Shown piece after piece: positions 2,266 through 32,000 of a stretch of DNA of 32,000 nt. The notes beneath the pieces were generated by a model, which worked only from the letters and a program-made list of their open reading frames with translations, made no database searches and had not been told where the DNA came from. How positions within the stretch are numbered: the stretch's first letter is position 1; each line of letters opens with the position of its first letter. Position numbers and translations under genes: made by a program. The stretch is taken from assembly GCA_031283585.1 (NCBI GenBank), contig JAITBP010000010.1, positions 43,944 to 75,943 of the forward strand. Direction: 5' to 3'. This DNA is from Puniceicoccales bacterium. Its GTDB lineage: Bacteria; Verrucomicrobiota; Verrucomicrobiia; Opitutales; LL51.

Positions 2266-2267
2266 AT

Positions 2268-2390
2268 TCAACTCCTCAAATTATTTATCTGTGAACGAAG
2301 CGTATCTATTTGCTGCTGAAGAGTATAGCTAAGCCTGTCCAGCTCATCTCTAAGTTTATTTATCTGACCAATGAGTATGTTATCATCCAT
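2268..2390 (-). CDS. 40-aa coiled-coil micro-ORF between fibre and tail genes
   Basis: Hand translation gives MDDNILIGQINKLRDELDRLSYTLQQQIDTLRSQINNLRS*. Its ATG is 1 nt after the fibre stop. Its TGA lies 2 nt before the ATG of the next gene, and its last codons contain that gene's GAGGAG. It is below the track size cutoff. Confidence 0.4.
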   Translation of the reverse strand: MDDNILIGQINKLRDELDRLSYTLQQQIDTLRSQINNLRS

Positions 2391-2391
2391 A

Positions 2392-3801
2392 TTAATTTAT
2401 GCCATAGATTGAAAAATTACCACCGGTAATATTGCCAGAAATGGCTTCTATTTTCAGTGAATTTACATTTACAAAGCCCGAGTTTAGGAATGTGGAGCTG
2501 TATCTTCCAGCACCAGCTTCATTGACGTAGGTATCAGAAGATGGCACATGCCACAGGTAATTAATTTCGGCCAACAGCTGTATGTAGCTACTGGTTTTAC
2601 CAGCTTTCCATAGAGAAACATCACCATTGAAAAATCCATCATAGGAACGGAAATTTGTACTGCTATTCCCCAGTGGCACATAACCCACGGTTCCATTATA
2701 CTTCTCATATCTTATTTCATTGCCTCTGAGATCTGATAGGGATGAAATATATTCTGAAGCTGTCGTTATCCAGGATGTTTCATTGTCCACGGTGTTTCCA
2801 AAGACAATGGATAGAAGTGCATAGACTGGACTTTTGGTACAACAATTCAGGACAATTTTGTAATGCAGGAACTGCGAACTATTCAGCACTTCGGTAAAAA
2901 TAACCGCTGCGGTGGAAGAACTCAGGCTGATCGTTTTCAGAAGTTTCCAGGGATAATTTTTCCAAGAAAGTCCGGTCTCGGAAGTCGAATCAACCATCAA
3001 TACCTGATTTTCATCACCCAAAGCTAATACCGTTGATGAATTTTCTCCACCGCCAACTATCATATCGCCGACACTGGATATGGGCGACAAGTTATTGAAT
3101 GCTGACACCTTATCCTCGGCACCTGTTCCTCCACAGCCAATGCTCAATGGGGTAATACCGGAAATGCTGCCACCGGTTATTGAGATAGCATCGCTATGCT
3201 GAACAGCCATCGACCCAAGGCCAAGATTAGATCTAGCAGCTGCTTCATCATCCACATCCAGCAGGTTTTTTGATCTGTTCATGAAGATGGCGTCGCATTC
3301 TGCGGCGGTGTAATATGATTCCAATGGCGGTGGCGGAATAATTGTATCGCTATTGCCGCCGTCAATCACCCTGATCTTACCAGCACAAACGGTTACGGTT
3401 TTTGCGTCGGGTTTCGTGATAACCCACAGGCTAAGCCAATAGTCATCGGCGGCCAGAGATGTTTCATTTTCGGAAAAATCAATGACCGCATGTTGAGCCG
3501 TTCCATTGGCCCAGGACTCCGGGGTGACACTGTTATCCAGCGAAGAAGTTTCGCCGTACATCAACACCTGATTACCGCTGTCCACCGTCGTTCCATCGCT
3601 ACTTAAGACCTTAACTGCCAAGCAGATCTTATCTATATTCGAAACATCTACCAAGGTTCCATTGGCAAATAATCCCAGCTGGAATTCCATGTCATTGGAC
3701 TTCCAAAATTGGACCATCTCCTTGCGATTTACATCTACTGGTAGACAAAATGTTTCTGTATCTATCCCAAGACGCAGTATAAACTTATCTATTGTTGTCA
3801 T
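2392..3801 (-). CDS. Phage tail fibre / receptor-binding protein
   Basis: 469 aa. The central segment (NLGLGSMAVQHSDAISITGGSISGITPLSIGCGGTGAEDKVSAFNNL) matches the motif common in phage tail-fibre proteins (LGLGS...ITGG.I.GITPL...GGTGA). The gene sits in the late operon. Confidence 0.6.
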   Translation of the reverse strand: MTTIDKFILRLGIDTETFCLPVDVNRKEMVQFWKSNDMEFQLGLFANGTLVDVSNIDKICLAVKVLSSDGTTVDSGNQVLMYGETSSLDNSVTPESWANGTAQHAVIDFSENETSLAADDYWLSLWVITKPDAKTVTVCAGKIRVIDGGNSDTIIPPPPLESYYTAAECDAIFMNRSKNLLDVDDEAAARSNLGLGSMAVQHSDAISITGGSISGITPLSIGCGGTGAEDKVSAFNNLSPISSVGDMIVGGGENSSTVLALGDENQVLMVDSTSETGLSWKNYPWKLLKTISLSSSTAAVIFTEVLNSSQFLHYKIVLNCCTKSPVYALLSIVFGNTVDNETSWITTASEYISSLSDLRGNEIRYEKYNGTVGYVPLGNSSTNFRSYDGFFNGDVSLWKAGKTSSYIQLLAEINYLWHVPSSDTYVNEAGAGRYSSTFLNSGFVNVNSLKIEAISGNITGGNFSIYGIN

Positions 3802-3818
3802 ATAAAAAAATAAAAATT

Positions 3819-4217
3819 CTATCCAATGCCATTGGTTATCCTTCCGCCGGTGATTTTATAATAATGCAGCGCTGTGTTACCATTGGCTGAAGATTGCACT
3901 GTAACCAGTACAGCATTATGCATATAGTAAGTATTATTACTGGGCTCACCGACCAGGGTTAGGTAGGACTGCAACCCGGTGAGCTCCGATGAATGTTCCA
4001 GAGAATTGATCTGGGCACTTTCTACCGAATCGTATTTCTTCATGACCTTGAATTCTATGGTGATTTGTAGATTTCCTCTATCTATGGCCTTGACTTCGGT
4101 CCCCCTTACGGTCTCGGCAATTTGGACGTTTCTCTGGCCGGAAATCTTCAGATCGAAAGGGTTCTCCCGTGCATTATCCCCGGCGGCCAACACTATTGTA
4201 CCAAATGATATTTTCAT
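3819..4217 (-). CDS. Small phage structural protein (possible tail tube/adaptor-like)
   Basis: The track ORF 3819..4244 starts at GTG and overlaps the upstream gene. The first ATG (MKISFGTIVLAAGDN...) is at 4217. Assigned by position between head-completion genes and the fibre. No family recognised. Confidence 0.45.
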   Translation of the reverse strand: MKISFGTIVLAAGDNARENPFDLKISGQRNVQIAETVRGTEVKAIDRGNLQITIEFKVMKKYDSVESAQINSLEHSSELTGLQSYLTLVGEPSNNTYYMHNAVLVTVQSSANGNTALHYYKITGGRITNGIG

Positions 4218-4231
4218 GATTTTATATTTTT

Positions 4232-4684
4232 TTATAGCGAGCACATCGCCGTGAAGGTTAAAATTATCAGGTTGGTTTGGTTCTCAACCTCTGATACCCA
4301 TGGTTTTGTCTCAGAACACGTTATATATCCTTGCCAGTGCTCCACATCAATTTTCACCAAATGAAGCAAGGCGGTGATTTTTTCTGCAACAGCTATGGAA
4401 CTTTTTCCCGAGCTGTTTGTATAAATATTATCTATTATCTTCAGCTGAATGCTGATGGTCTCAAACACCGGACCGGGGACATTTTTATCGATTCTTATGG
4501 GCACAGGAGGCATCACAAGAATCGCCACACTAATACCTTCACGCACAGCGTTTGTTATTATGCTCTCAACATTACTTTGCCTATGGGTAAATATCGGGAC
4601 GCCACGTAGTTCAACATTTTTTTCGATCAAAGTGACTAGGTAATCCTGAATTTTTTCTAAAATCCCATCGTTTGGCCTATACAT
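4232..4684 (-). CDS. Phage head-completion/neck protein (Mu gp37/DUF1834-like, tentative)
   Basis: 150 aa. Starts 1 nt after the stop of the gp36-like gene. Size and position match the Mu gp36-gp37 pair. Confidence 0.45.
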   Translation of the reverse strand: MYRPNDGILEKIQDYLVTLIEKNVELRGVPIFTHRQSNVESIITNAVREGISVAILVMPPVPIRIDKNVPGPVFETISIQLKIIDNIYTNSSGKSSIAVAEKITALLHLVKIDVEHWQGYITCSETKPWVSEVENQTNLIILTFTAMCSL

Positions 4685-4685
4685 A

Positions 4686-5135
4686 TCAGAATCCCCCTAA
4701 TGTTTCACCGGTTACAGTGTTTTCCCTATGGGTTACTACTTCCACGCCAACAGGTTGGTAATCTTTGGCTTCATCAGGAACCGATATGGCCACCTCTCCT
4801 TTAGCCACCCTTCGCAGAGATTCACGGGCCTGATCCGCCAGACGAATCTGATCTTCAGATAGCTTCAAACCAGGGATTCTGGTCTGGGCAATCTCCAATA
4901 TCAGGCTGCAGGCCGCGCTTTTTAATTCCAACGGAATAGCCCCGGCGGTAGCACTTAATACATTCTGCCGGTTGCTCTTGATTTCAGATCGAATCCTTGA
5001 AGAAACATCTTTGATGATCTCCATAATCGGATCGATCTGATGTTTGGCCAGCGCCTGTTTACGTAGTGCATCTACCTGTTGCGCAACCAAATAGTCATAT
5101 AAATCTTCGGGTATAATTTTAATCCAATTGGTCAT
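4686..5135 (-). CDS. Phage head-tail connector protein (Mu gp36/DUF1320-like, tentative)
   Basis: 149 aa, MTNWIKIIPEDLYDYLVAQQVDALRKQ.... It is the first gene after the capsid gene. The N-terminal pattern is typical of the DUF1320 family. Confidence 0.5.
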   Translation of the reverse strand: MTNWIKIIPEDLYDYLVAQQVDALRKQALAKHQIDPIMEIIKDVSSRIRSEIKSNRQNVLSATAGAIPLELKSAACSLILEIAQTRIPGLKLSEDQIRLADQARESLRRVAKGEVAISVPDEAKDYQPVGVEVVTHRENTVTGETLGGF

Positions 5136-5150
5136 GATATTTTTGTCTAT

Positions 5151-5256
5151 CCGGAGGATTTTTTACTTCTTTTATTTTTTCCATTTTTTCTGTTTTTTTG
5201 TTTTTTCTGCTTTTTCTGTTTTTGCTTCCTATTTTGAATTAAAAATCCCCCGGAGG
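5151..5256. repeat. Phased A-tract / short-repeat intergenic region flanked by direct CCGGAGG heptamers
   Basis: The minus strand reads ...gcaaaaacagaaaaagcagaaaaaacaaaaaaacagaaaaaatggaaaaaataaaagaagtaaaaaa.... CCGGAGG occurs at 5151-5157 and 5250-5256 on the plus strand. The region lies between the capsid stop (5287) and the next start (5135). Confidence 0.6.
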
Positions 5257-5286
5257 TTGTTTATTTTGGTTTTGTTAGCCTAGCTG

Positions 5287-6252
5287 TTAGGTGGCTGAAA
5301 CCACAAGTTTTCTTATTCCCGTGGTTGATGTTACCACAATGTTACTGTAGTGCTCTACGGTTATGTCGCTGAATTTGCTGTGTTCCTCGACATAAACCCT
5401 AAATGGTGAGCCATCGGCCGGTGTCACAAATCTTTTTATATTGGCCGGTTCATCTTTCATGATCTCATTGTTTGTAAAAAATGCATATATGCTATTGCCC
5501 AATATGGCTTCCTTGGATGTGGCCGCATTTTGGTAGCGTGCATTAATTACACGGACTTCATCTACAAATAATTTACAAGCAAGTTCTTCCAGCGTTAACC
5601 CCGCAGCACGACTAGCTCCGGCATTGTTCTGAGCGTCGTAGGAATTGGCTCTGATATCCCAGGCAGCTTCGCCTATTACAATCCTGTTCGGTCGCACACC
5701 GGTGATGTCCGTTGCGGCTTCTAACTCCGAGCGTATATCTGCATCCGGGTTTGACTCATCCGCCCATACATAGTTAGCGGAAGCAGTTTGAGCATTGGCT
5801 TCCAGAGCAGAAATTGCCCGGCGCAACTCATTGCGATATAACCTCTGCAGCAGCAGTTGGACATAGCGTTCACGCCAATCATCACCAGCCACATCATCGT
5901 GATCAATCCGAATTGTAAGTCCTTTATTAAAAGTCTTCGATGTAACGGATGTACCGGTAAATTCGACCCTTTTAAAGGCTGATCCAATGGAACGGATATC
6001 GTCGGTTTCAGATAAAAATGCCTCATTATTGTTGGCTACCTTAAACTCAAATCGACGGGAGACCGGAACTATCGGTGCCAAAAAGTTCAACAATGACTCT
6101 ATGTTTTCCCTGTCCTTCCACCCAACGGTAAATGCCGTAAGTGGTTCTGAATAATTGGATGCAGTAAACCGCGATTCGTTGGCTGCACAGACCGTTCCAT
6201 AGTCCTGAAAACCGTCATCTTTTGGTAATATTTCGAATGTATTCATTTTCAT
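5287..6252 (-). CDS. Phage major capsid protein
   Basis: 321 aa, immediately downstream of the protease and decoration genes. Size and order fit an HK97-fold coat protein. The exact family is uncertain. Confidence 0.7.
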   Translation of the reverse strand: MKMNTFEILPKDDGFQDYGTVCAANESRFTASNYSEPLTAFTVGWKDRENIESLLNFLAPIVPVSRRFEFKVANNNEAFLSETDDIRSIGSAFKRVEFTGTSVTSKTFNKGLTIRIDHDDVAGDDWRERYVQLLLQRLYRNELRRAISALEANAQTASANYVWADESNPDADIRSELEAATDITGVRPNRIVIGEAAWDIRANSYDAQNNAGASRAAGLTLEELACKLFVDEVRVINARYQNAATSKEAILGNSIYAFFTNNEIMKDEPANIKRFVTPADGSPFRVYVEEHSKFSDITVEHYSNIVVTSTTGIRKLVVSAT

Positions 6253-6268
6253 AATATACTTAAAATTA

Positions 6269-6685
6269 TTATGGCATTACGTGTTTAGTTGGTACGCAGG
6301 ATAATACCTCCACCATGCCATTTGCTATGGCACCATTCAGTGCTATCCCAATGCAATTATAGGTTCCTGTTGACGTACCGAGGGGAGTAATTTTTCCATT
6401 GGCCGCCGGCATAAGACGCGTACCGGCCGATATTTCTGCACTGGCAATGGCTTTTATGGTATCCGCACAGCCAAGTAATGCCACATTCACAATGTCTCCG
6501 GCCGATGCTTCGTCGGTTGCGACGCCTATGGGCAGATCCGAACCAGTACAAATATCGACTTCGGCAGAATTGCTGCTATCGATTTTAACCAGAGTATACT
6601 TTTCGGTGATGTCGGCTTTCGCAATCCTGGTGATATTGCCTTCGTGGGTACCTTCTGCAATGTTAGAGAATATTTCTTTTTTCAT
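6269..6685 (-). CDS. Head decoration/cement protein (DUF2190-like)
   Basis: The track start 6715 is TTG; the first ATG is at 6685 (MKKEIFSNIAEGTHEG...). It is Gly/Ala-rich (LPIGVATDEASAGDIVNVALLG...AGTRLMPAANGKITPLG), as in DUF2190 proteins that sit between protease and capsid genes. Confidence 0.55.
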   Translation of the reverse strand: MKKEIFSNIAEGTHEGNITRIAKADITEKYTLVKIDSSNSAEVDICTGSDLPIGVATDEASAGDIVNVALLGCADTIKAIASAEISAGTRLMPAANGKITPLGTSTGTYNCIGIALNGAIANGMVEVLSCVPTKHVMP

Positions 6686-6719
6686 ATTTTTATGGGTGAA
6701 AATTTTGTTAATCAACGAA

Positions 6720-7709
6720 TTAATCAGTGAACAGTGATGGATTGGTTCTTTTTGCCCAGGCCCAGGCTTCGCTATATTTATCGCCGGTGGCCATCATATG
6801 TTCCTGTACCAAAGCCAGGATTTTGTCCTTTTTTTCATAAAAGCACCTGGCCCGGCTGTTTAGACCGATGGTTTTTGTTTTAGTATTTAAATTGGTCGAT
6901 GGCAAAGATTCCTCATCCCTATCATTAGCCATGTCCATGGTGACCGGTGCCGAGCCATCCACAGCCAAATTCACTGCCATCGATTCATTTTCTTGTTTTT
7001 GCAACTCGTTGGGTTGGATCATGTGATAAAGGTTTTCAGCCTCGGCTCTGAGCTTTTTATTCTCGTCGATCAGTTCCTCGGCCTGAGTTTTCCATTTTAC
7101 TGAATTTTCCACCATGGATTTCAATGTGTTTAGTTGCTCTTCAAAATCCATTAACTCATTCAATCCGAGCAGGGTTATGAACCTTGCAAGCTTTTCGCCA
7201 TCGGATAGTCGCGCATTTTTCGAACCCGAGTGATCGACTAGCCTGCAGGTCCTGATATTTGGATTGTTTGTAAGACCGACCGACAGCAATTTTATAGGCT
7301 CAAAGCCATTGTTTCCTATATTTTTCATGCGCCACCTGGGCGATAAAAATCTGAAAAAACCATTTCTAATCAATTGATAACCTACACCGGACCAATGGAT
7401 TAAAAGCCACATACCATCGGATCTTGGCTCAATATCCTTGACCCTTCCATAGACCAGGTGACTTTTGTGACCCGGACTACCGGAAAACCTATCATCATCG
7501 GGATGGCCTATAAAAATCGGTAACCCGAGAAATTTTCTGCTCAGCCGACCTCGCAGTGATTTAAAATTTTTTGCGATTATCTCAGCCGACGACCTGTTGA
7601 AATGCTGCACACCTCTGGGATGTGGGTAGTCACCATAGGGCAGTAATTTGATCCACTGATCCAGCACCGGCTTTTCCATGGTTTTTAAATTAGTGTTCAT
7701 TTTATACAT
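6720..7709 (-). CDS. Mu gpI-like prohead protease with C-terminal scaffold-like coiled coil
   Basis: The N-terminus (WIKLLPYGDYPHPRGVQHF...AEIIAKNF...LPIFIGHPDD) resembles the Mu-like prophage protease family. The C-terminal half is coiled-coil (EEQLNTLKSMVENSVKWKTQAEELIDENKKLRAEAENL). The start is ambiguous, with ATGs at 7709, 7700 and 7679; the 7709 start overlaps the portal stop by 8 nt. Confidence 0.65.
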   Translation of the reverse strand: MYKMNTNLKTMEKPVLDQWIKLLPYGDYPHPRGVQHFNRSSAEIIAKNFKSLRGRLSRKFLGLPIFIGHPDDDRFSGSPGHKSHLVYGRVKDIEPRSDGMWLLIHWSGVGYQLIRNGFFRFLSPRWRMKNIGNNGFEPIKLLSVGLTNNPNIRTCRLVDHSGSKNARLSDGEKLARFITLLGLNELMDFEEQLNTLKSMVENSVKWKTQAEELIDENKKLRAEAENLYHMIQPNELQKQENESMAVNLAVDGSAPVTMDMANDRDEESLPSTNLNTKTKTIGLNSRARCFYEKKDKILALVQEHMMATGDKYSEAWAWAKRTNPSLFTD

Positions 7710-8907
7710 TTTTTATCAGAATATTTTCCGAATTTTCTGGAGTGGTAAGACCAAACTTTTCCCTGATATCCTCGATGGCCAATGGCACTCCCATGTCAAA
7801 AAGTTCGCGATAAATCACTATTTCATCCCTGGTATTAGCTCTGGGTTTTGTTACCAACCTGATATAGGCTTTCGGATTTGCGTCGCCGAATAAATGCCTG
7901 ATGACAAATTTGTCCACCTGCTCATTCAATGTCTCGGAAATCATGGTTGCATCATCCTCTTCTATCAGTGCAGTTTCATCGGCCTGAAGCGAAGCTCCCG
8001 TTCCAGATGCTCTTGATAATGTAGATAGATCTGACCCACGCCACAGGGCAGAGATAGCTCTGTCCATCCGATCAACCAACGCCGGATAGGGTAGCTCACC
8101 ACGGCTGGTTAAGTCTATGGCTTCGATGTTTGTGCCTTCGGACATTAGGGCATTAAATTCCGCTCCAAAGTCTTCCACCGCATCCCTGGCCGCCTCCCAC
8201 TGGGGTGATCCGGGCGAAGCATCGGTCACTCCTTTGACACCGGGCATTCCATTGCGCTCACAATATACAAGCCAATCCCGCAGAGGAAGATGCTTGAACA
8301 GATAGGCAATCGAAGAAGCCTCCATCAACCCATCTCCGACGGTTACAAGCCAGGCTCCATCATCCAGTGGAACGCCATCGGTGGCCGTGTCGCTTTCAAG
8401 AAATCTCAAGGACCCGGTCTTGTTCTCAAAGAACCACAGCGGCACAAACCTGAAAACAGCTGTCAATTTAAGTTTATCTCCATTGGCCAAAGGAATGTAG
8501 ATTATTTCATGTACTGCATACTTCTTGCCTATGGCATCCATCATTTGCTTCACCAGTAGGCCGAAGCCACCTCGCTCATTACCATCGCAGGCATGGGTAG
8601 CCGAAAGATTATTATAAAAATATTCCAGTGCACATTTATGATTCAGGGCTTCTTCGGATTGGTCCAACGCAATGATTTCCCATTGCAACCTGGCCACGGA
8701 TTTTTTCCTTTTTGCTGCCACACCCTGGATCACATCGTCTCTTCGTTCAATCGAATCCCAGGTCATCGCAGCGCTACGAAGATAGCCTGCCGCAAATGCA
8801 TCCAACATCTGGGATAGCGAATCTGGTGTCAAAGTTTTTATTGGATTAAACCTTGCTCTCATGGAGCTCTTAATCCTTGCTTCCGAAATCTGCGAAATTG
8901 TTTTCAT
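7702..8907 (-). CDS. Phage portal protein (DUF935 / Mu gp29-like)
   Basis: 401 aa. The N-terminus (LTPDSLSQMLDAFAAGYLRSAAMTWDSIERRDDVIQGVAAKRKKSVARLQWEI) fits the DUF935 portal pattern. It lies directly downstream of TerL. Confidence 0.8.
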   Translation of the reverse strand: MKTISQISEARIKSSMRARFNPIKTLTPDSLSQMLDAFAAGYLRSAAMTWDSIERRDDVIQGVAAKRKKSVARLQWEIIALDQSEEALNHKCALEYFYNNLSATHACDGNERGGFGLLVKQMMDAIGKKYAVHEIIYIPLANGDKLKLTAVFRFVPLWFFENKTGSLRFLESDTATDGVPLDDGAWLVTVGDGLMEASSIAYLFKHLPLRDWLVYCERNGMPGVKGVTDASPGSPQWEAARDAVEDFGAEFNALMSEGTNIEAIDLTSRGELPYPALVDRMDRAISALWRGSDLSTLSRASGTGASLQADETALIEEDDATMISETLNEQVDKFVIRHLFGDANPKAYIRLVTKPRANTRDEIVIYRELFDMGVPLAIEDIREKFGLTTPENSENILIKNV

Positions 8908-8911
8908 AAAA

Positions 8912-10294
8912 TTAAACTACTGTTAAGCGATTGGGTCTTTGTATCTTAGTAAAAAATTGTTGCCTGACTGCCGGCATACATTGCTGGGCGGCATATATTG
9001 CCAGGGCCAATGCCCAAAATCTATCCGCATGGCCATTTTTACCGCGATCGGCATAGAACCTGATATTGCCAGAAAAAGTTACCTCCTTCTTTATAGCCCT
9101 CAGATCGGCACGGATGGCCGGATCATCAGGAATCTTCACCGAACCAGTTTCGAAAGTCGTCAGCAACAAATAGGCCAATTTTTCTTTTATATAATTGGTA
9201 AAAGTGATGCCTTCGACCTTGTATTTTCCAAAAAACGCCGATGCACGCTCTGTAAATTGCCTACCGATACCGGTCTGATCTATGCCAATTCTTCTCAAAA
9301 ATGGTATGCTCAGAAACTCATGCAGAACCCGCTCTTGCTCGGAAAACGGTGCGTCTTTTAGGCAAATCACCCGCCTTGTTTCCAGGCAATCGCCACTTCT
9401 TTCTAGCAACCAAAACACCGTAAGGTCATGATCACGACCAATATCAATTCCAAGAAACACATTATCACTCTGCAAAGTTTCATAATTCAAAATCTCCCAA
9501 TCATCACCATGTTTATAGGTGCATTTATCGATCAGTTCCGTTGGCAGGAAAATTGACTGATCATCCCAGGGAACACACATATATTCCTGCATAAACGACT
9601 CCTCATCCGGGCAAGAACTTCTGACATAATCGAAATACTCTGCCTCATCCATATGCTGCCTAGGATCATCTTCGGGTAATTTTCCTTTTAGTTTTGCCAA
9701 AAACCCTTGATCGAGAGCATCCTGTAGCGTAACTCTGTGATGTGAAAATTTCCTAAAATTACCGTTTTCACTTATATCTTTCAGCAACCTATTGAAAAAA
9801 TTTTGAGAACCCCGGTGGGTGGATATGATTTCCAGTCGACCACCCCAGGTTATACCTGGGTAAGCCACTGAATATAAAGCCCTTGGGTTTTGATGAAGGG
9901 CAAATTCGTCCAATACACGATTGCCGCGCTTGCCAGCCTGCGCATCTGGGCTTGACGATAGGGAATGGATATGTGTATTATTTAAAAAGCGCAGGGAAAA
10001 AGAAGCAAAATGCCTCGATTCTGGCAATATTTCAGAGCCCAGGGCCCGCGCGGCAATGTGTAAAATTTTACTAAATTTCCTGCAATCTTCTAGGAAAAGC
10101 TTCGCCTGGATTTCGTCCCTTGATGATACCCAGGAATCGATCTTCTTGTCACAGTTAGCATGTTCTCTAACAAGGCCATAAGCCGAGGCCATAGATATTC
10201 CGATTTGCCTGGATTTTTCCATTATTTTCAGGCTTGAATCATCATTGATCCATCGCGACTGATAGGGTAAAAAAAATTTTTCCGAAACATCCAT
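8912..10294 (-). CDS. Terminase large subunit (Mu gp28-like)
   Basis: 460 aa. The N-terminus (FLPYQSRWINDDSSLKIMEKSRQIGISMASA) matches the LPYQ..W..D.S..K...KSRQ.G.S motif of gp28-like terminases. It lies upstream of the portal gene. Confidence 0.8.
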   Translation of the reverse strand: MDVSEKFFLPYQSRWINDDSSLKIMEKSRQIGISMASAYGLVREHANCDKKIDSWVSSRDEIQAKLFLEDCRKFSKILHIAARALGSEILPESRHFASFSLRFLNNTHIHSLSSSPDAQAGKRGNRVLDEFALHQNPRALYSVAYPGITWGGRLEIISTHRGSQNFFNRLLKDISENGNFRKFSHHRVTLQDALDQGFLAKLKGKLPEDDPRQHMDEAEYFDYVRSSCPDEESFMQEYMCVPWDDQSIFLPTELIDKCTYKHGDDWEILNYETLQSDNVFLGIDIGRDHDLTVFWLLERSGDCLETRRVICLKDAPFSEQERVLHEFLSIPFLRRIGIDQTGIGRQFTERASAFFGKYKVEGITFTNYIKEKLAYLLLTTFETGSVKIPDDPAIRADLRAIKKEVTFSGNIRFYADRGKNGHADRFWALALAIYAAQQCMPAVRQQFFTKIQRPNRLTVV

Positions 10295-10612
10295 CTATAA
10301 TAGCCTCAATTGGGTTTCAAGATCCTCGATTACAGCCTCGGACAAAGGCTGCCTAAAATCTGTGTTTTGACTCCCATGTTTTGACTGTTCCATGGAACAC
10401 ATGGTTGTGTGGCAGGTAAAAAGTTTTTGAATGACGCCGGACAGGGTATTCAGGTCCGAAACAGAAACCTCATCGGATCGACACAGTAAATCGAAAAGTA
10501 TTTGCCAGGTGCGAGCTAGAGAAGCCCCAGCTATGGACGAGGAAATTTCCAGGCTATCCAGCATCACATCAGCACCAGGTTTCACGGATTTTAATATCTG
10601 CTTGGGTTCCAT
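10295..10612 (-). CDS. Hypothetical phage protein (position suggests small terminase subunit)
   Basis: The track start 10618 is TTG; the ATG is at 10612. The stop codon directly abuts the TerL ATG. No recognisable motif. Confidence 0.35.
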   Translation of the reverse strand: MEPKQILKSVKPGADVMLDSLEISSSIAGASLARTWQILFDLLCRSDEVSVSDLNTLSGVIQKLFTCHTTMCSMEQSKHGSQNTDFRQPLSEAVIEDLETQLRLL

Positions 10613-10739
10613 TGACAACGAGCAGAGTATAACACAGAAATCCCCGATGATAATGAATCGGTTTGGGCTATTGGATAGGGTCGCAGGAACTATTAAATTG
10701 CGACAAATTGCAGGATTGGGTAGACAGATTTAACCACCC

Positions 10740-10813
10740 TGGCTGCCCGGCCAGGATTCGAACCTAGACTAACGGGACCAAAACCCGCTGTGCTACCGTT
10801 ACACCACCAGGCA
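10740..10813 (-). tRNA. tRNA-Gln (anticodon UUG), CCA encoded
   Basis: Hand-folded 74-nt cloverleaf. The 7-bp acceptor stem is UGCCUGG/CCGGGCA. The D arm is GUGU-AACGGUA-GCAC. The anticodon arm is GCGGG-UUUUGGU-CCCGU, giving anticodon UUG. The variable loop is 4 nt, the T arm is CUAGG-UUCGAAU-CCUGG, and the discriminator is G followed by CCA. Confidence 0.9.
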
Positions 10814-27827: not shown

Positions 27828-28832
27828 ATGAATAAAAATAAAATAAATAAATGTAGTTTAGCTATCATGTTGGTATCAATGGCTTGCTTTGATGCTGGCA
27901 GATGTTATGCCGTACAAGGCTCAGACTCAGATAGCGATGAGGAGTTTGTTGTTGAGGTATCAAATGATGACAATAATATGCAAGGGGAAGATTACTTAGA
28001 TTTGTGCCCAAATCTTTCTACTGCTATCAAAATAATCACACAGAAATATTATAGAGGCGAAATCACACGTAGAGATTGTTTAAAAAAATACAAGGAAGCT
28101 TGTAAGTTATTTGGTTCCGAGTATACATCGTCATTTCGTAAAAATTTAGAGGACTGGTGCCTTAAGTCTAATCGTAAAAATTTAGATTGCTGGGACCTTA
28201 GGTCTAATGAGATTGTAAAAGATATTGAGCTTGGTGTAGAGCTTGGTGATATTTTATATTCAATTAGGTATAGGCTCGACCGAAGTGTAGCCGTTGCCAA
28301 GAGTAGTGATGAGTATCGTAAAGGATTCATACCTGAGATACTGGAAGCTAAATACCTAATGAGTCGTAAAATTAAAGAAAAAGTGAAAAAATATACCGAA
28401 AGCATTGTTGGACTACGTTACGTCCCAAATAATAGCGATAGATTGGCATCACTAAATAACTTAAATAAGAATATAAATGCGTGTCTCTCAGAATGGAAAA
28501 ACATAAGCAAGTATATCTATGACAGCATTATACCGCTAATAAAAGCCCCTGAGAATTTTGATGAAGAAACTAAGAAGAAGTATCAAATTTCAGAAATGCG
28601 TTATGGTTATTTGAAGCCCTATATTGAAGATGTACAAAGAGGAAATGAGTCTCTTGATTCTGATATTGCTAAGGAAATTTTAGATCTTTATAAAAATACA
28701 AAGGATAATGGTTTTGATAATGAAAAAAAGATAAAAGAATTAGTGAAAGCGGTTAGAAGTATTATTCTTAATGCTAATAATCCTGAGTTGACCGAAATAT
28801 TGGATGGATATAATATTGATGAAAATCTGTAA
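27828..28832 (+). CDS. Orphan secreted Lys/Glu-rich protein
   Basis: GGAGG lies 7 nt upstream of the ATG. Signal peptide MNKNKINKCSLAIMLVSMACFDAGRCYA. The coding sequence is very AT-rich. No family recognised. Confidence 0.7.
   Translation: MNKNKINKCSLAIMLVSMACFDAGRCYAVQGSDSDSDEEFVVEVSNDDNNMQGEDYLDLCPNLSTAIKIITQKYYRGEITRRDCLKKYKEACKLFGSEYTSSFRKNLEDWCLKSNRKNLDCWDLRSNEIVKDIELGVELGDILYSIRYRLDRSVAVAKSSDEYRKGFIPEILEAKYLMSRKIKEKVKKYTESIVGLRYVPNNSDRLASLNNLNKNINACLSEWKNISKYIYDSIIPLIKAPENFDEETKKKYQISEMRYGYLKPYIEDVQRGNESLDSDIAKEILDLYKNTKDNGFDNEKKIKELVKAVRSIILNANNPELTEILDGYNIDENL
28137..28208 (+). repeat. Intragenic 36-bp tandem duplication (RKNLEDWCLKSN / RKNLDCWDLRSN)
   Basis: The copies at 28137-28172 and 28173-28208 differ at 6 of 36 positions by hand count. 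Confidence 0.85.
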
Positions 28833-28850
28833 TCAATATAATATACAACC

Positions 28851-30047
28851 ATGAGTTTTGGAAGTGTTGGTAGTGGTTCCATTCCGGATGGGATATATGT
28901 TAATGGTATACTCGTGGATCCAACAGCGATCCCCGAGGTTACCACTAACGTCAAAAAGAAAAAAGTTTCCGGCGATGCTCAGATTGGTGGTCAGGTGCTA
29001 AAAATCGTAGGACCTGAGGGAGTAGGAATCACCAGCGCGCCTGGTGAAGTGGCTGGATATTACCCTACCCTCACCGCTGACCCGACTTTCACCACCGAAG
29101 ATGGCAAATGGGCAAAGGTGTTACAAAGCTTTGAGCAGGATACCAGTATGCGTATTGGGAACAGTGCAATCACAGCCAATGCAGAAGAATATAACGCCAT
29201 GTTAAATGGCCTCGATGCCTCTTCAAACATAGCACCAAGTTCACGCACAGCCGCTAGTATTGGTACCCTTGCGGCCCAGGTAGCCATTCTAATGACAAAG
29301 AACGCTTCTTTGCAAAAATCCATCGAGCGTGAAATGAAAGCCGAAATGACTCAGCTGCAATATCAGATAGGAATGGATGTGGCCCAAAAAATAAGAGAAA
29401 AAGGTGAATTGGAGTTCAACCAAAAGATGGTCGAGGCTTTCAGTGGTATCGTTGAAACTGCCGCCGGAATGATTGCTCAACAAATCGGCCGAAAGATATC
29501 TGAACATAATTTGCAAAAATATGACGAAGGTGTTGCACAAATTGACACCACTGCACCCACATCCACACCCAGCGCAAAAGCTGCCGAAACAAGATCAGAA
29601 CAGGCAGCCGACGAAAATTTTAATCGTGACCAATTTAATGCAAAGCAAGAAATCATAGATCAAAAAATTCAAAACGAGGAAATCATCAATAAAGATGCCA
29701 AGACCCTAAGTGGCCCAGCGAATCTAGAACAAAATCAAAGAATGGCCATACCACTTACCGAAGCGGAGAAACAACAGGTTAATATGGAGGCTAGCCTGGC
29801 CGGCGATCTAGGTAAAGCCATAGCCGGCTTTGCCATGAAAACAGTTTCCGCACATCTGGGTCTGCAAATCTCCAATAAAGAAGCCGATATCCGTGGTATG
29901 GAAGCGCTTAATCAATTGGTTGGAAATATCATACAGAATACCGAAAGTAGCATACGCTCCGCTGACCAAGCTACACAGGCGGCCATGCAATTATTCCAGC
30001 AAATCTGCCAGACCCGTCATGAAGCTTTCCAAAGTGTGGTAAGGTAA
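28851..30047 (+). CDS. 398-aa helical/coiled-coil protein with two hydrophobic segments (translocator- or pore-former-like; unassigned). Referred to as gene A.
   Basis: ATG lies 18 nt after the upstream stop. No signal peptide, and a Ser/Gly-rich N-terminus (MSFGSVGSGSIPDG). Hydrophobic segments are AASIGTLAAQVAILM and LAGDLGKAIAGFAMKTVSAHLGL, with long Gln/Glu/Lys-rich helices between them. Confidence 0.75.
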   Translation: MSFGSVGSGSIPDGIYVNGILVDPTAIPEVTTNVKKKKVSGDAQIGGQVLKIVGPEGVGITSAPGEVAGYYPTLTADPTFTTEDGKWAKVLQSFEQDTSMRIGNSAITANAEEYNAMLNGLDASSNIAPSSRTAASIGTLAAQVAILMTKNASLQKSIEREMKAEMTQLQYQIGMDVAQKIREKGELEFNQKMVEAFSGIVETAAGMIAQQIGRKISEHNLQKYDEGVAQIDTTAPTSTPSAKAAETRSEQAADENFNRDQFNAKQEIIDQKIQNEEIINKDAKTLSGPANLEQNQRMAIPLTEAEKQQVNMEASLAGDLGKAIAGFAMKTVSAHLGLQISNKEADIRGMEALNQLVGNIIQNTESSIRSADQATQAAMQLFQQICQTRHEAFQSVVR

Positions 30048-30051
30048 TTAT
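29908..30051 (+). repeat. Repeat copy 1: the authentic 3' end of gene A
   Basis: Encodes ...NQLVGNIIQNTESSIRSADQATQAAMQLFQQICQTRHEAFQSVVR*. It is the master copy of the two downstream fragments. Confidence 0.95.
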
Positions 30052-30053
30052 AT

Positions 30054-30860
30054 TCATAAAAGGCCACAATCGTAAATGGAAAAATCACCTAAGTCTTCTT
30101 CTTCTTTTTTAATGTCAACGTTGTTGACTCCTTCTCCAGTACCTGGTGGTGTTTCCATCGAACCAGATTTCCTTACTGTTCTGATTTTGATTTCTATTGC
30201 ATTACATAGATCAGTGGATGGGTTACCAACCTCTTTAGCTATTTTGTATGCATTTTCAAAGAGATCAACATTTTCCTCGGTTACTCCTTCGCATTCCGGT
30301 GTAGAGAGCTTTTCAAGAATCTTTAACCAGGGCAGATATACATCACCATGTACTTTACACCAAACCTCATATACAGTAGAGCATTCAAATATATAACACA
30401 ACATATTAGTCAGCCTACACTTCAATTCTTCTTGACTATTATATAAATTGCCCACATTGTTGTACGACCAGTCTGACATGGCTATAATCTTGCTGCTATC
30501 AGGGTTAAGGATGTAGGTAAACCCTAGAAATTTTGGCACTTGACAGAAAAGATTTTTCAGGTTGTAAAAGAATAAAGTGGGAATATCCACGTATTCACCA
30601 CAACAGATGTTAAAAGCGCTATTATACGTGTTGTTACCAGGACAAAACCAATTTGTGTTTTTGTCGTCTTCAATAAAACTAAAGCTATTGTCACGACAAA
30701 TTTTACAGAAATTATGCCAAGTTATATAATTACCGTCACAATCAATCCATGATTTGTCTCTTGCATCTTTTAACCAATCTTGCCAAGGGTCAGCACTCAA
30801 AAAATTAAACACTGACATGGCCATAAACAACAATATACATTTTCTACTATTATTACACAT
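30054..30860 (-). CDS. Cys-rich secreted protein, paralog B1 (novel family)
   Basis: 268 aa. Signal peptide MCNNSRKCILLFMAMSVFNFLSA followed by DPWQDWLKD. Contains many Cys. Its stop is 6 nt from the convergent stop of gene A. It is a paralog of 31012..31833. Confidence 0.75.
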   Translation of the reverse strand: MCNNSRKCILLFMAMSVFNFLSADPWQDWLKDARDKSWIDCDGNYITWHNFCKICRDNSFSFIEDDKNTNWFCPGNNTYNSAFNICCGEYVDIPTLFFYNLKNLFCQVPKFLGFTYILNPDSSKIIAMSDWSYNNVGNLYNSQEELKCRLTNMLCYIFECSTVYEVWCKVHGDVYLPWLKILEKLSTPECEGVTEENVDLFENAYKIAKEVGNPSTDLCNAIEIKIRTVRKSGSMETPPGTGEGVNNVDIKKEEEDLGDFSIYDCGLL

Positions 30861-30902
30861 GTCGTTGATTTTGATAGAGTTATATTTTTTTACAATATTT
30901 GT

Positions 30903-31046
30903 TTAATCAATTGGTTGGAAATATCATACAGAATACCGAAAGCAGCATACGCTCCGCTGACCAAGCTACACAGGCGGCCATGCAATTATTCCAGCAAATC
31001 TGCCAGACCCGTCATGAAAATTTCCAATGTGCGATAAAATAATTAT
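30903..31046 (+). repeat. Repeat copy 2: start-less, in-frame orphan fragment of the gene A 3' end
   Basis: There is 1 mismatch in the first 116 nt versus 29908-30023, and 8 of 144 overall, by hand count. An in-frame TAG lies ~35 nt upstream and there is no start codon. The fragment reads NQLVGNIIQNTESSIRSADQATQAAMQLFQQICQTRHENFQCAIK*. Confidence 0.95.
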
Positions 31047-31833
31047 GCCTACGAAGCATGTCAGCGTTGTAAGGGTTTCCTCCAGTATCTGGTGGTGTTT
31101 CCATCGGATCAGGTTTCCTTACTGTTGCGATTTTTTCTTCTATTGCTCTGCATAGATCAGTGTTCATGTGACAAACCCTTTTGGCTATTTTGTATGAGTT
31201 TTCAAAGAGATTAACATTTTCCTTGGTCACTACTTCGCATTCCTGCGAAGAGAGCTTTTCAAAAACCTTTAACCAGGGCCAATATACATACCCATATACT
31301 CTCCTCCAAACCTCAAATACACTAGAGCAATCAAATATATAACACAACGCACTGGCCATCTTATCTTTCATTTCTCCTTCATATAAACTGCCCACATCGT
31401 CAGACATCCAGTCTAACATGTTTATAGTCGAGTGATTACCATCGTTGAATTCATAGGGATATTTTAAAATATTTTGCATATGACAGAAAAGATCTTCCAG
31501 TTTGATAAATAATAAAGTGTTAATATCCCCGTATTCATCACAACAAAACCAATTTGTGTTTTTGTCGTCTTTAATAAAATGAAAGCTATTGGCATGACAA
31601 ATTCTACAGACATAGGCCCAATTTATATAATTACCGTTACAATCAACCCATGATTTGGCTCTTATATCTTCTAACCAATCTTGCCAAGGGTCAGCACTAA
31701 AAAAATTAAACACTGACATGGCAAATTTGTCTCTTATATCTTTTAACCAATCTTGCCAAGGATCAGCACTCAAAAAATTAAACACTGACATAGCAATAAA
31801 CAACAATATACATTTTCTATTGCTATTGCCCAT
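31012..31833 (-). CDS. Cys-rich secreted protein, paralog B2 (novel family)
   Basis: 273 aa with the same signal peptide and DPWQDWL motif as B1. It carries a duplicated N-terminal block. Its last ~11 codons (HNYFIAHWKFS*) are encoded antisense to repeat copy 2. Confidence 0.75.
   Translation of the reverse strand: MGNSNRKCILLFIAMSVFNFLSADPWQDWLKDIRDKFAMSVFNFFSADPWQDWLEDIRAKSWVDCNGNYINWAYVCRICHANSFHFIKDDKNTNWFCCDEYGDINTLLFIKLEDLFCHMQNILKYPYEFNDGNHSTINMLDWMSDDVGSLYEGEMKDKMASALCYIFDCSSVFEVWRRVYGYVYWPWLKVFEKLSSQECEVVTKENVNLFENSYKIAKRVCHMNTDLCRAIEEKIATVRKPDPMETPPDTGGNPYNADMLRRHNYFIAHWKFS
31651..31794 (-). repeat. 72-bp intragenic tandem duplication in B2
   Basis: AMSVFNFLSADPWQDWLKDIRDKF is followed by AMSVFNFFSADPWQDWLEDIRAKS. 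The DNA copies are offset by exactly 72 nt (for example 31659-31722 versus 31731-31794). Confidence 0.9.
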
Positions 31834-31874
31834 GTCACTGATTTTAGTAGAGTTATATTTTTTACAATATTTGT

Positions 31875-32000
31875 TTAATCAATTGGTTGGAAACATAACA
31901 CAGAATACCGAAAGCAGCATACGCTCCGCTGACCAAGCTACACAAGCGGCCATGCAATTATTCCAGCAAATCTGCCAGATCCGTCATGAAGCTTTCCAAA
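31875..32000 (+). repeat. Repeat copy 3: another orphan fragment of the gene A 3' end, truncated by the window end
   Basis: There are 6 mismatches in 126 nt versus 29908-30033 by hand count. The frame is retained (NQLVGNITQNTESSIRSADQATQAAMQLFQQICQIRHEAFQ...). The 42-nt spacer preceding it is also conserved with 30861-30902. Confidence 0.95.

Follow-up and report, generated by a model that had tools for sequence, protein, structure and literature searches.

Chromosomal integrons carry conserved attC repeats of ~120 nt between variable cassettes of ~1 kb. Concerted evolution, which acts on tandem arrays, usually homogenises the genes themselves. Orphan C-terminal/immunity modules of Rhs and CDI loci have been described in terms of 'C-terminal displacement' (Jackson, 2009; Poole, 2011; Koskiniemi, 2014; as cited in PMC5361080). 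For the immunity gene arrays of the Vibrio cholerae T6SS, sequential displacement has been put forward, with a conserved upstream stretch as the proposed recombination anchor; these arrays have heterogeneous members from different strains, and duplication was excluded, with copies that do not cluster within a genome (PMC5361080). The array described here resembles each of these systems in part. Like integron arrays, it alternates conserved repeats of ~140 nt with variable genes of ~0.8 kb. Like the Rhs/CDI orphan modules, it has start-less 3' fragments downstream of a master gene, a retained stretch of homology that can serve recombination, and a variable gene next to it, and as in the V. cholerae arrays these variable small genes lie downstream of a conserved, putative secretion-system gene. 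Its near-constant period, common junction, mosaic identity with sharp edges and discordant phylogenies are likewise those of tandem arrays under concerted evolution.

The window analysed is a stretch of 32,000 nt, and its host is an uncultured termite-gut bacterium. Gene A (28851-30047, plus strand) is an ORF for an all-helical product of 398 aa. Its last 46 codons, with the stop codon and 4 nt, make up A-tail copy 1, the master copy (29908-30051, plus strand), which is followed by gene B1 (30054-30860, minus strand), a spacer of 42 nt (30861-30902) that is the sole native sequence remaining upstream of the B1 start, and an orphan fragment, A-tail copy 2 (30903-31046, plus strand). The same order is repeated by gene B2 (31012-31833, minus strand), a second spacer of 41 nt (31834-31874) and the orphan A-tail copy 3 (31875-32000, plus strand), which is cut by the window end. 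A repeat search of the window returned a three-copy repeat at 29891-30032, 30886-31027 and 31858-31999, with spacings of 995 and 972 nt, and a pairwise repeat between 29908-30051 and 30903-31046 at 94% identity. Together with the ORF coordinates, these matches establish that the tandem array of A 3'-end repeats and minus-strand B paralogues proposed in a preliminary description of the sequence is real, and they recover both its unit periods and its conserved spacer of ~42 nt. The units are arranged head-to-tail in the order fragment, B, spacer, and number at least three.

Unit comparison revealed a sharp onset of homology at 29908 (TTAATCAATTGG), and the preceding 17 nt are unrelated. The novel duplication junction connects the spacer to TTAATCAATTGG, such that the 3' part of spacer 1 belongs to the junction. 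This junction is identical before copies 2 and 3, where an exact match of 36 nt (30886-30921 and 31858-31893) spans spacer and fragment, which indicates one origin followed by amplification. Furthermore, the convergent genes A and B1 are separated by only 6 nt from stop codon to stop codon, so that a duplication can include B in full only if it starts within A, and a piece of A is then almost unavoidable. The A fragment would be a passenger of such a duplication. We read the array as a clear if rather ordinary instance of duplication combined with gene conversion, and we consider it probable that a young tandem duplication, unequal crossing-over and gene conversion together produced it, with the A fragment carried along as a passenger. 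For the order of events, we infer that one head-to-tail duplication of ~1 kb would have taken in 144 nt of the A end, the convergent B gene and the 42 nt that precede the B start, which would have made the single novel junction, and that unequal homologous crossing-over between units would have raised their number to at least three with the same junction in each. The B copies would then have diverged through substitutions at a dN/dS of ~1, indels and an internal duplication. The A fragments, presumably devoid of a function of their own, would have been held near the master by gene conversion, and the master by selection on protein A.

Apparent tandem units could also be an artefact, partly or wholly, of short-read metagenome assembly or binning, through which alleles of different strains are joined in series. 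The source is indeed a metagenome-assembled genome, and contigs of related assemblies end conspicuously often just downstream of A. In addition, the further B paralogue that had been predicted from the third fragment is present in the same assembly but on another contig, whose edge cuts its 3' end (B3, the putative B gene of unit 3; P0006, LBB20_02430; 82% identical to B1), and such an artefact would make B3 an allele rather than a third unit. However, the junction of spacer and A tail is present twice and cannot come from joined alleles, and B1 and B2 differ at ~22% of nucleotides plus indels, which is far above the divergence of strain alleles. At 75 nt, the longest exact match shared by units falls short of the k of 119 that contig names in sister assemblies show; paths through the graph are unique as a result, and repeat collapse is unlikely. 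Analogous duplications also appear in independent assemblies. We regard an assembly or binning artefact as very improbable.

Identity varies sharply along the unit, with ~99% in the core of the A tail, 77% in the last 24 nt of A, 50-87% in the B body and 90-97% at the B 5' end. Site-by-site comparison reproduced the mismatch counts reported earlier, namely 1/116 in the core, 8/144 for copy 1 versus copy 2 and 6/126 for copy 1 versus copy 3. Between copies 1 and 2, the single core mismatch is at site 29948, and the 116-nt core (30903-31018 in copy 2) differs significantly from the next 28 nt, which hold seven mismatches (Fisher P = 4e-5), with identity falling from ~99-100% to 77% at 30020-30024. 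Copy 3 differs from both others at five core sites, but at its end (GCTTTCCAAA) it agrees with copy 1 and not with copy 2. The grouping also switches along the fragment, as five core sites join copies 1 and 2 and three end sites join copies 1 and 3 (P = 0.018). Identities among the B proteins match the picture at the fragment end, as units 1 and 3 group together, with 82% identity between B1 and B3 versus 52% between B1 and B2. The core shared by copies 1 and 2 would represent one recent conversion tract, placed at 29908-30023 in copy 1 and 30903-31018 in copy 2 (plus strand) with a breakpoint between 30013 and 30024, and unit 3 would be the younger sister of unit 1.

The observation that the fragments are better conserved than the B genes was confirmed. 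The 116-nt cores of the orphans are 95-99% identical to the master, and the one core difference between copies 1 and 2 contrasts with a pS of 0.20 and a divergence of ~22% in B (binomial P = 1e-11). Among the explanations offered in the preliminary description, gene conversion from A combined with change in B is the one supported by the data: the identity step and the switch in grouping favour conversion alongside a fast-evolving B, whereas the diversifying selection invoked for B is only suggested. As for direction, we infer that conversion runs from the master copy, and the fragments would be nearly identical to it because they are overwritten. Four of the six variable core sites are synonymous in the frame of A, and copy 1 versus copy 3 gives a pN/pS of 0.18; this lean is unexpected for a pure passenger unless conversion comes from a selected master, and the sites are too few to settle the matter. 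In contrast to arrays under concerted evolution, what is homogenised here is a non-coding remnant of a neighbouring gene, while the genes of the units diverge fast.

B1 encodes a protein of 268 aa that is rich in Cys and Trp, has a Sec-type signal peptide and ends in CGLL, and B2 encodes 273 aa that are 52-59% identical to B1. The alignment of B1 with B2 contains all of the differences noted previously, including a 39-nt indel, unlike C-termini and a 72-nt duplication, which is internal to B2 (31653-31724 and 31725-31796). Owing to a 3' deletion, the reading frame of B2 overlaps the antisense strand of A-tail copy 2 by 35 nt. Comparison of these two DNA sequences yielded a dS of 0.234, a dN of 0.268 and a dN/dS of 1.14, values that may hint at diversifying selection. 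Ten mature Cys residues are invariant across the three paralogues, the eight Trp residues are all conserved, and members of the family were found in this assembly only. Thus, B evolves fast while keeping its signal peptide and its Cys/Trp scaffold.

On the minus strand, each orphan fragment also sits upstream of a B start, and nothing but the 42-nt spacer and a fragment lies upstream of B1 and B2; spacer and fragment may carry a B promoter or leader. Selection could then keep the fragments in a co-opted role, as promoter or 5' leader of B, in which case the B transcripts would be complementary to the A mRNA over ~140 nt at its 3' end. Alternatively, they could be kept as a translated 47-aa helix from the C-terminus of A. 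Consistent with the first role, one conserved block runs without a break from the B signal peptide across the spacer to the fragment, a -35-like TTGATT lies within the first bases of the fragment, and minus-strand promoter-like sites occupy the same relative place before copy 1 (30076-30047) and copy 2 (31064-31036). Terminator prediction returned none between A and B1 and none between units, again in keeping with co-option. However, promoter-like matches are common in such AT-rich DNA (21 observed versus 10.9 expected), and the spacer nearest the B start is ~73% conserved versus 99% for the distal core, the reverse of what a promoter would lead one to expect. The step at 30020-30024, from 100% to 77%, likewise resembles the edge of a conversion tract rather than a gradient of selection. 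With respect to translation, the fragments had been described as lacking a start codon, with an in-frame TAG upstream of copy 2. The TAG is located at 30875-30877 and no ATG is present, but an in-frame TTG was made at the junction in both orphans. In copy 2, the TTG at 30899 opens a mechanical ORF of 47 aa (30899-31042), and the presence of this frame in copies 2 and 3 and the synonymous bias of their variation agree with a translated product, as does the precedent of a chimeric ORF in related lineages, described below. Conversely, the TTG is preceded by no Shine-Dalgarno-like sequence, neither strand of the fragment folds significantly (z of 0.3 and 1.0), and the fragment has no match in Rfam. 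The lack of a fold, of an Rfam match and of a predicted terminator applies equally to a possible shared 3' UTR or antisense role, as put forward in the preliminary description. Overall, we find co-option of the fragments doubtful.

The layout of the locus, with a conserved anchor of 116 nt, a variable tip and a variable cargo, also invites comparison with recombination cassettes of the C-terminal displacement or orphan-module type, for which anchor-mediated displacement is a described model (PMC5361080). The A tail would then anchor the gain, storage, loss and swapping of modules composed of an A tip and a B gene, which would bring variation to the secreted repertoire and to the C-terminal 8 residues of A. 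The last 8 codons do carry seven changes, of which six are replacements. Nevertheless, copies 2 and 3 have the same junction, which argues for simple amplification rather than separate insertions, and all B copies belong to one paralogous family restricted to this assembly, as duplication predicts. Furthermore, the variable tip comprises 8 residues rather than a domain, B runs convergent to A instead of being co-transcribed with it, and a recombinase is absent nearby among the ORFs scanned.

Several of the likened systems differ from the locus in specific ways. A variable toxin C-terminus of the Rhs/CDI type was ruled out, given that only the last 8 residues vary and that family searches detected no toxin domain and no Rhs/CdiA domain in A. 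The co-directional immunity gene of such loci has no counterpart either, with B convergent to A, Cys-rich and equipped with a Sec signal peptide. Whereas Rhs/CDI modules pair toxins with immunity genes, B shows no sign of an immunity protein, A is a translocator paralogue rather than a toxin, and the orphan junctions are all identical. In contrast to the V. cholerae arrays, the copies are paralogues from this one assembly that have their junction in common. An integron cassette array was rejected on the basis of the fold scores given above, the lack of an integrase or recombinase nearby among the scanned ORFs, and the identity of the repeat as the coding 3' end of A; also unlike integrons, the cassettes are paralogues, and another lineage repeats the same protein region with different DNA.

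Related lineages contain comparable duplications of an A tail with its neighbour (L003 and L004/L010), which support our preferred explanation in that they represent further stages of this process. In L003 there is a collapsed tandem with a period of 1018, L004 has a second A tail that is ~75-81% identical together with a B-like gene that is mostly deleted, and mosaicism of master and orphan is visible in L010. Units that start inside the A tail are thus found in three lineages and in two gene orientations, a recurrence that exceeds a single accident and counts against our preferred explanation of duplication with a passenger fragment. In L001, a B-like gene lies between direct repeats of 86 nt, which have an origin other than A; B-type genes therefore duplicate with or without a piece of A. 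The genes adjoining A are completely different between lineages, and such lineage-specific cargo beside recurring A-tail duplications is in keeping with cassettes. So is the finding that 3 of 11 related contigs end less than 450 nt after A, versus 0.26 expected (P = 0.002), which points to repeats or strain heterogeneity at this position. Separately, we note that the 3' flank of A is a hot spot where differing secreted genes are born, duplicated and lost, some of them with a CaaX-like end.

The L004/L010 locus is far more diverged than its flanking gene, as would also be expected of cassettes: between these lineages, dS is 0.148 for A and 0.26-0.49 for the orphan but 0.015 for the flanking thioredoxin gene. 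Comparison of the two orphans with each other gave a pS of 0.32-0.36 and a pN of ~0.075 (binomial P = 2e-4), and the chimeric ORF that contains the orphan tail has a dN/dS of 0.22. These substitution patterns show that the tail is clearly under purifying selection at the protein level; orphan tails can therefore acquire function, which also counts against our preferred explanation. A broader possibility is that the tail of a translocator paralogue is a reusable anchor, and sometimes a translated module, for effector-diversifying cassettes in termite-gut Puniceicoccales, where host-directed secreted proteins specific to each lineage would be copied, stored, fused or swapped, with orphans kept by selection as L004/L010 suggest; such a system would resemble the Rhs/CDI orphan arrays, on a type III secretion gene. 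We judge it improbable, and a cassette origin of the present array is similarly unlikely.

Gene A matches no Pfam or NCBIfam family. Its own family numbers 24 representatives among 1.84 billion proteins, and all ten of its genome loci examined are from Puniceicoccales metagenome-assembled genomes, such that it is a small, previously unnamed family known solely from this source. Using hhalign, A was aligned with a 297-aa family of a chaperone-translocon operon (probability 99.4%, E = 4.7e-22) over ~210 columns that include the C-terminal tail. In L009, L011 and L013, this operon consists of an LcrH/SycD-family chaperone gene, a 555-680-aa translocon-like gene and the 297-aa gene, which is the gene order of type III translocon operons of the lcrH-yopB-yopD and sicA-sipB-sipC type, with A homologous to the last product. 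The operon chaperone matches TIGR02552 with E = 1e-27 at 94-96 bits (cutoff 104.8), and a 572-aa operon protein matches NF011889 (E = 1.4e-6). This homology makes gene A a paralogue of a putative minor translocator of type III secretion (SctB/YopD-like), and its product may be secreted by a type III apparatus. Curated translocator models had no significant match to A, PF04888 SseC was matched by 3 of 21 family members, all below threshold (best E = 1.9e-4), a PDB search by sequence returned no match, and no type III apparatus genes occur among the window ORFs scanned. Unlike the last gene of the translocon operons, A is isolated and lies outside this operon, with no chaperone gene adjoining it in the window.

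Taken together, the array documents, for a lineage of uncultured symbionts, the growth of a fast-evolving secreted-protein family beside a putative secretion-system gene. In addition, it provides a clean worked example of a pseudogene fragment whose seemingly excessive conservation is attributable to a dated conversion tract instead of a function. The array itself may matter less than the side results, namely the A family, the hot spot at its 3' flank and the chimeric ORF with an orphan tail. If the A tail proved to be a recombination anchor, the orphan-module principle would reach from toxins to type III secretion loci.

ORF calling and a repeat search bore out the layout proposed in the preliminary description, in which fragments of a plus-strand gene alternate with minus-strand genes. 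Gene A (28851-30047, plus strand, 398 aa), whose tail is the master copy of the repeat (copy 1, 29908-30051), is followed by B1 (30054-30860, minus strand, 268 aa), which encodes a secreted Cys-rich protein and has a stop codon 6 nt away from that of A. Next, a 42-nt spacer (30861-30902) leads into A-tail copy 2, which corresponds to the last 144 nt of A (30903-31046), the B1 paralogue B2 (31012-31833, minus strand, 273 aa), a 41-nt spacer (31834-31874) and A-tail copy 3, which starts at 31875 and is cut by the end of the window. The array periods are 995 and 972, the homology among A tails has an abrupt left edge at 29908, and site-by-site comparison of the tails returned the same mismatch values as the earlier hand counts. 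The fragments had been called start-less, which holds for ATG but not for an in-frame TTG that is made by the junction and opens a mechanical 47-aa ORF (30899-31042). A 28-nt pattern from the repeat core had no match in genome contigs or metagenome contigs. Just upstream of A, a low-GC ORF (27828-28832) encodes a 334-aa signal-peptide protein and contains a 36-nt direct tandem duplication, 83% identical (28136-28207).

A third B paralogue, P0006 (LBB20_02430), lies on another contig of the same assembly, where its 3' end is cut by the contig edge. At the protein level it is 82% identical to B1 and 52% identical to B2, and B1 and B2 share ~52-59% identity, with dS of 0.234, dN of 0.268 and dN/dS of 1.14. 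A 13-codon indel also separates B1 from B2, and relative to B1 the B2 gene has an internal duplication of 24 codons and a 3' deletion. Across the three paralogues, ten mature cysteines are invariant and all eight tryptophans and the signal peptide are kept, which indicates that the B genes are not decaying pseudogenes. We found no B relatives outside this assembly and no match to B in Pfam or NCBIfam, and the AlphaFold model of B (pLDDT 38) was unusable for fold search. The C-terminus of B2 has been replaced through a 49-nt deletion relative to unit 1, such that its final 11 codons and stop (35 nt, 31012-31046) are the antisense of A-tail copy 2.

The contrast between conserved fragments and divergent B genes is real because fragment 2 departs from the master at a single site within its 116-nt core, against B divergence of ~22% (binomial P 1e-11). 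The identity profile of the units is stepwise rather than graded, with 99-100% identity over 29908-30020 followed by 77% in the final 24 nt of A, and copies 1 and 2 differ at 1/116 core positions versus 7/28 end positions (Fisher P 4e-5). Five core sites set copy 3 apart from copies 1 and 2, which agree, whereas three sites within the last ten readable bases set copy 2 apart from an agreeing pair of copies 1 and 3, a switch of grouping between core and end with P 0.018. The B protein grouping agrees with the fragment end and not with the core, and because both group in this way we infer a sister relationship between units 1 and 3, with unit 2 being older. We thus read the core shared by copies 1 and 2 as a tract of gene conversion, in which the master would have overwritten the core of fragment 2, or fragment 2 that of the master, and we place the breakpoint of the tract between 30013 and 30024. 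The divergence of copy 3 from copy 1 (~5%) is unremarkable if the DNA of B1 and P0006 has diverged similarly. Of the earlier proposal that gene conversion is combined with diversifying selection on B, these comparisons support only the half concerning gene conversion. Among the window fragments read in the A frame, four of the six variable core sites are synonymous and pN/pS between copies 1 and 3 is 0.18, although the counts are small. We rejected this bias as proof that the fragments are translated, since six sites are too few, and the counts are likewise too small to separate selection on the fragments from conversion by a selected master.

Copies 2 and 3 have the same junction between spacer and fragment, and an exact match of 36 nt spans it, which suggests that the junction formed once and would then have spread by unequal crossing-over. 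Because the A and B stops are so close, a duplication that keeps B whole would have to begin inside A, and the A fragment is probably a geometric by-product of that constraint. Collapse or expansion of the array during assembly could mimic such an arrangement and is unlikely because the longest exact repeat between units, 75 nt, is shorter than the k of 119 recorded in the contig names of sister assemblies.

On the minus strand, every fragment doubles as the region upstream of a B gene, which would accommodate a promoter role for the conserved sequence. However, conservation is lower in the spacer beside the B start than in the distal core, which argues against this explanation. The fragments had also been proposed to serve as a shared 3' UTR that provides antisense complementarity to A mRNA. 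A terminator scan revealed no terminator-like site within or between units or between A and B1, so that minus-strand transcripts of the array would contain sequence antisense to the 3' end of A. The only two sites that the scan returned are both on the minus strand, upstream inside A. No significant RNA fold was found for the fragment on either strand, and there was no Rfam match.

The other earlier proposal, that the repeats act as recombination cassettes, finds a parallel in the anchor-and-cargo layout of the array, which is similar to that of Rhs/CDI orphan modules and of the Vibrio T6SS immunity arrays (PMC5361080). The array nevertheless lacks the defining features of those systems: its variable tip comprises 8 residues, the B genes are convergent to A and their products Sec-exported, every junction is the same, and the copies are paralogues that are, as far as known, confined to this assembly. 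Membership in a toxin/immunity system was rejected on the grounds of the short tip, the orientation and export of B, and the putative relationship of A to a translocator. An integron attC site was also rejected, as the repeat is A coding sequence without structure and no integrase was nearby among the ORFs scanned.

Gene A has no match in Pfam, NCBIfam or PDB, the last searched with A profiles, and its AlphaFold model (pLDDT 38) was unusable for fold search. A profile search of 1.84 billion representatives returned only 24 relatives, a genome scan returned ten loci, all in Puniceicoccales metagenome-assembled genomes, and a metagenome scan with a tail-only alignment gave 412 pattern matches with 0 confirmed. 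In three related loci, a convergent minus-strand operon that putatively encodes a type III translocon lies just downstream of the A homologue (L009, 8662-11600; L011, 2033-5081; L013, 8627-11731). Its chaperone, seen in L011 and L013, is a 164-aa member of the LcrH/SycD family (TIGR02552, E 1e-27, slightly below cutoff), its second protein (555-680 aa) is a weak type III translocon match (NF011889, E 1.4e-6), and its third protein (297 aa) is homologous to A. Because the A family aligns to this 297-aa family by hhalign (probability 99.4%, E 4.7e-22) with the C-terminal tail within the alignment, A is best read, from sequence, as a paralogue of a putative minor type III translocator and would presumably be secreted. 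L011 encodes an additional 1227-aa protein with the same ...NNIR end.

Several genes that neighbor A encode CaaX-like ends, namely ...DCGLL in B1 (window 30054-30068) and ...GGCC[EA]V[QF] in ankyrin-like proteins (L003 1036-1059; L004 3705-3725 and 4061-4081; L009 8622-8642; L010 3138-3158; L013 8479-8499), and these proteins begin with signal-peptide-like hydrophobic segments. Such ends recall the host-prenylated effectors of intracellular bacteria, with prenylation being our guess from eukaryotic CaaX boxes. Elsewhere in the window, 517-10618 looks like a Mu-like prophage or remnant, with minus-strand genes that include a Mu-type portal, a Mu-like protease, a large terminase and phage cement proteins, and the block ends beside tRNA-Gln (10740-10813).

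The gene adjoining the A 3' end varies with lineage. In the window subclade (L001, L005 and L015) it encodes a convergent signal-peptide protein, as it probably does in L002, where the contig ends within the ORF and includes only its 3' end. The window B proteins have only the first ~40 residues in common with those of L001 and L005 (signal peptide and A[DN]PW..L) and no homology to the neighbor genes of L003 and L009. In L003, L004, L009 and L013 the neighbor is co-directional and weakly ankyrin-like, with the C-terminus CC[EA]V[QF], of which L013 retains a C-terminal remnant only. The L015 A homologue (2-945 of a 1389-bp contig) appears split by a frameshift into genes at 2-175 and 223-945, with an overlapping TTG ORF (145-945), and a convergent small lysine-rich signal-peptide protein lies 36 nt past it. 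L001 (4473-4560) and L005 (3817-3900) have in common the palindrome TGTCAA-N8-TTGACA, ~40-60 nt ahead of the B-like start, which is absent upstream of window B1 and B2, where an A fragment stands instead.

Additional A tails occur in several related loci. L003, a 1137-bp contig with identical ends (1-119 and 1019-1137), is a collapsed tandem with a period of 1018 nt that consists of an orphan tail, with an in-frame stop at 60-62 and an ATG ORF of 62 aa, and a neighbor gene for a 226-aa signal-peptide protein. In L004, a second tail lies 1053 nt past the first, is ~75-81% identical to it, and has become joined, through a deletion, to the end of the neighbor gene; L010 has the same fusion. Both assemblies retain an intact chimeric ORF, with dN/dS of 0.22, 13 synonymous versus 10 replacement differences in the tail part (binomial P 2e-4), and pN/pS of 0.36 between orphan and master, a substitution pattern which indicates that this orphan tail has been under protein-level constraint. 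The orphan is also mosaic with the master. Between L004 (1973-4793) and L010 (1595-3912), dS is 0.015 for the flanking thioredoxin gene, 0.148 for A, 0.26 for the orphan-tail ORF and 0.49 for its tail part, a difference that is due to locus-specific hyper-divergence or allele exchange. A B-like gene is frameshifted in L004 and absent from L010.

Three of 11 related contigs end <450 nt past A, compared with 0.26 expected (P 0.002), at 116 nt (L002/L006), 224 nt (L008) and 443 nt (L014), as expected if repeats or strain variants are present there. L001 contains 86-nt direct repeats (3500-3585 and 4666-4751; 94% identical, 1166 nt apart) that are not A-derived, flank a B-like gene just ahead of tRNA-Val and tRNA-Lys (4870-5087), and may mark a cassette boundary or be what is left of a further tandem duplication. 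Taken together, the lineage-varying neighbors, extra tails, L001 repeats and contig breaks indicate that the sequence flanking A on its 3' side is a hot spot for duplication and turnover, in which a piece of A is included where geometry requires. The process itself is known, and the array adds a new example of it from an uncultured symbiont lineage, at an unnamed type III translocator-like locus; the recurrent, occasionally domesticated orphan tails are the part that most deserves attention.
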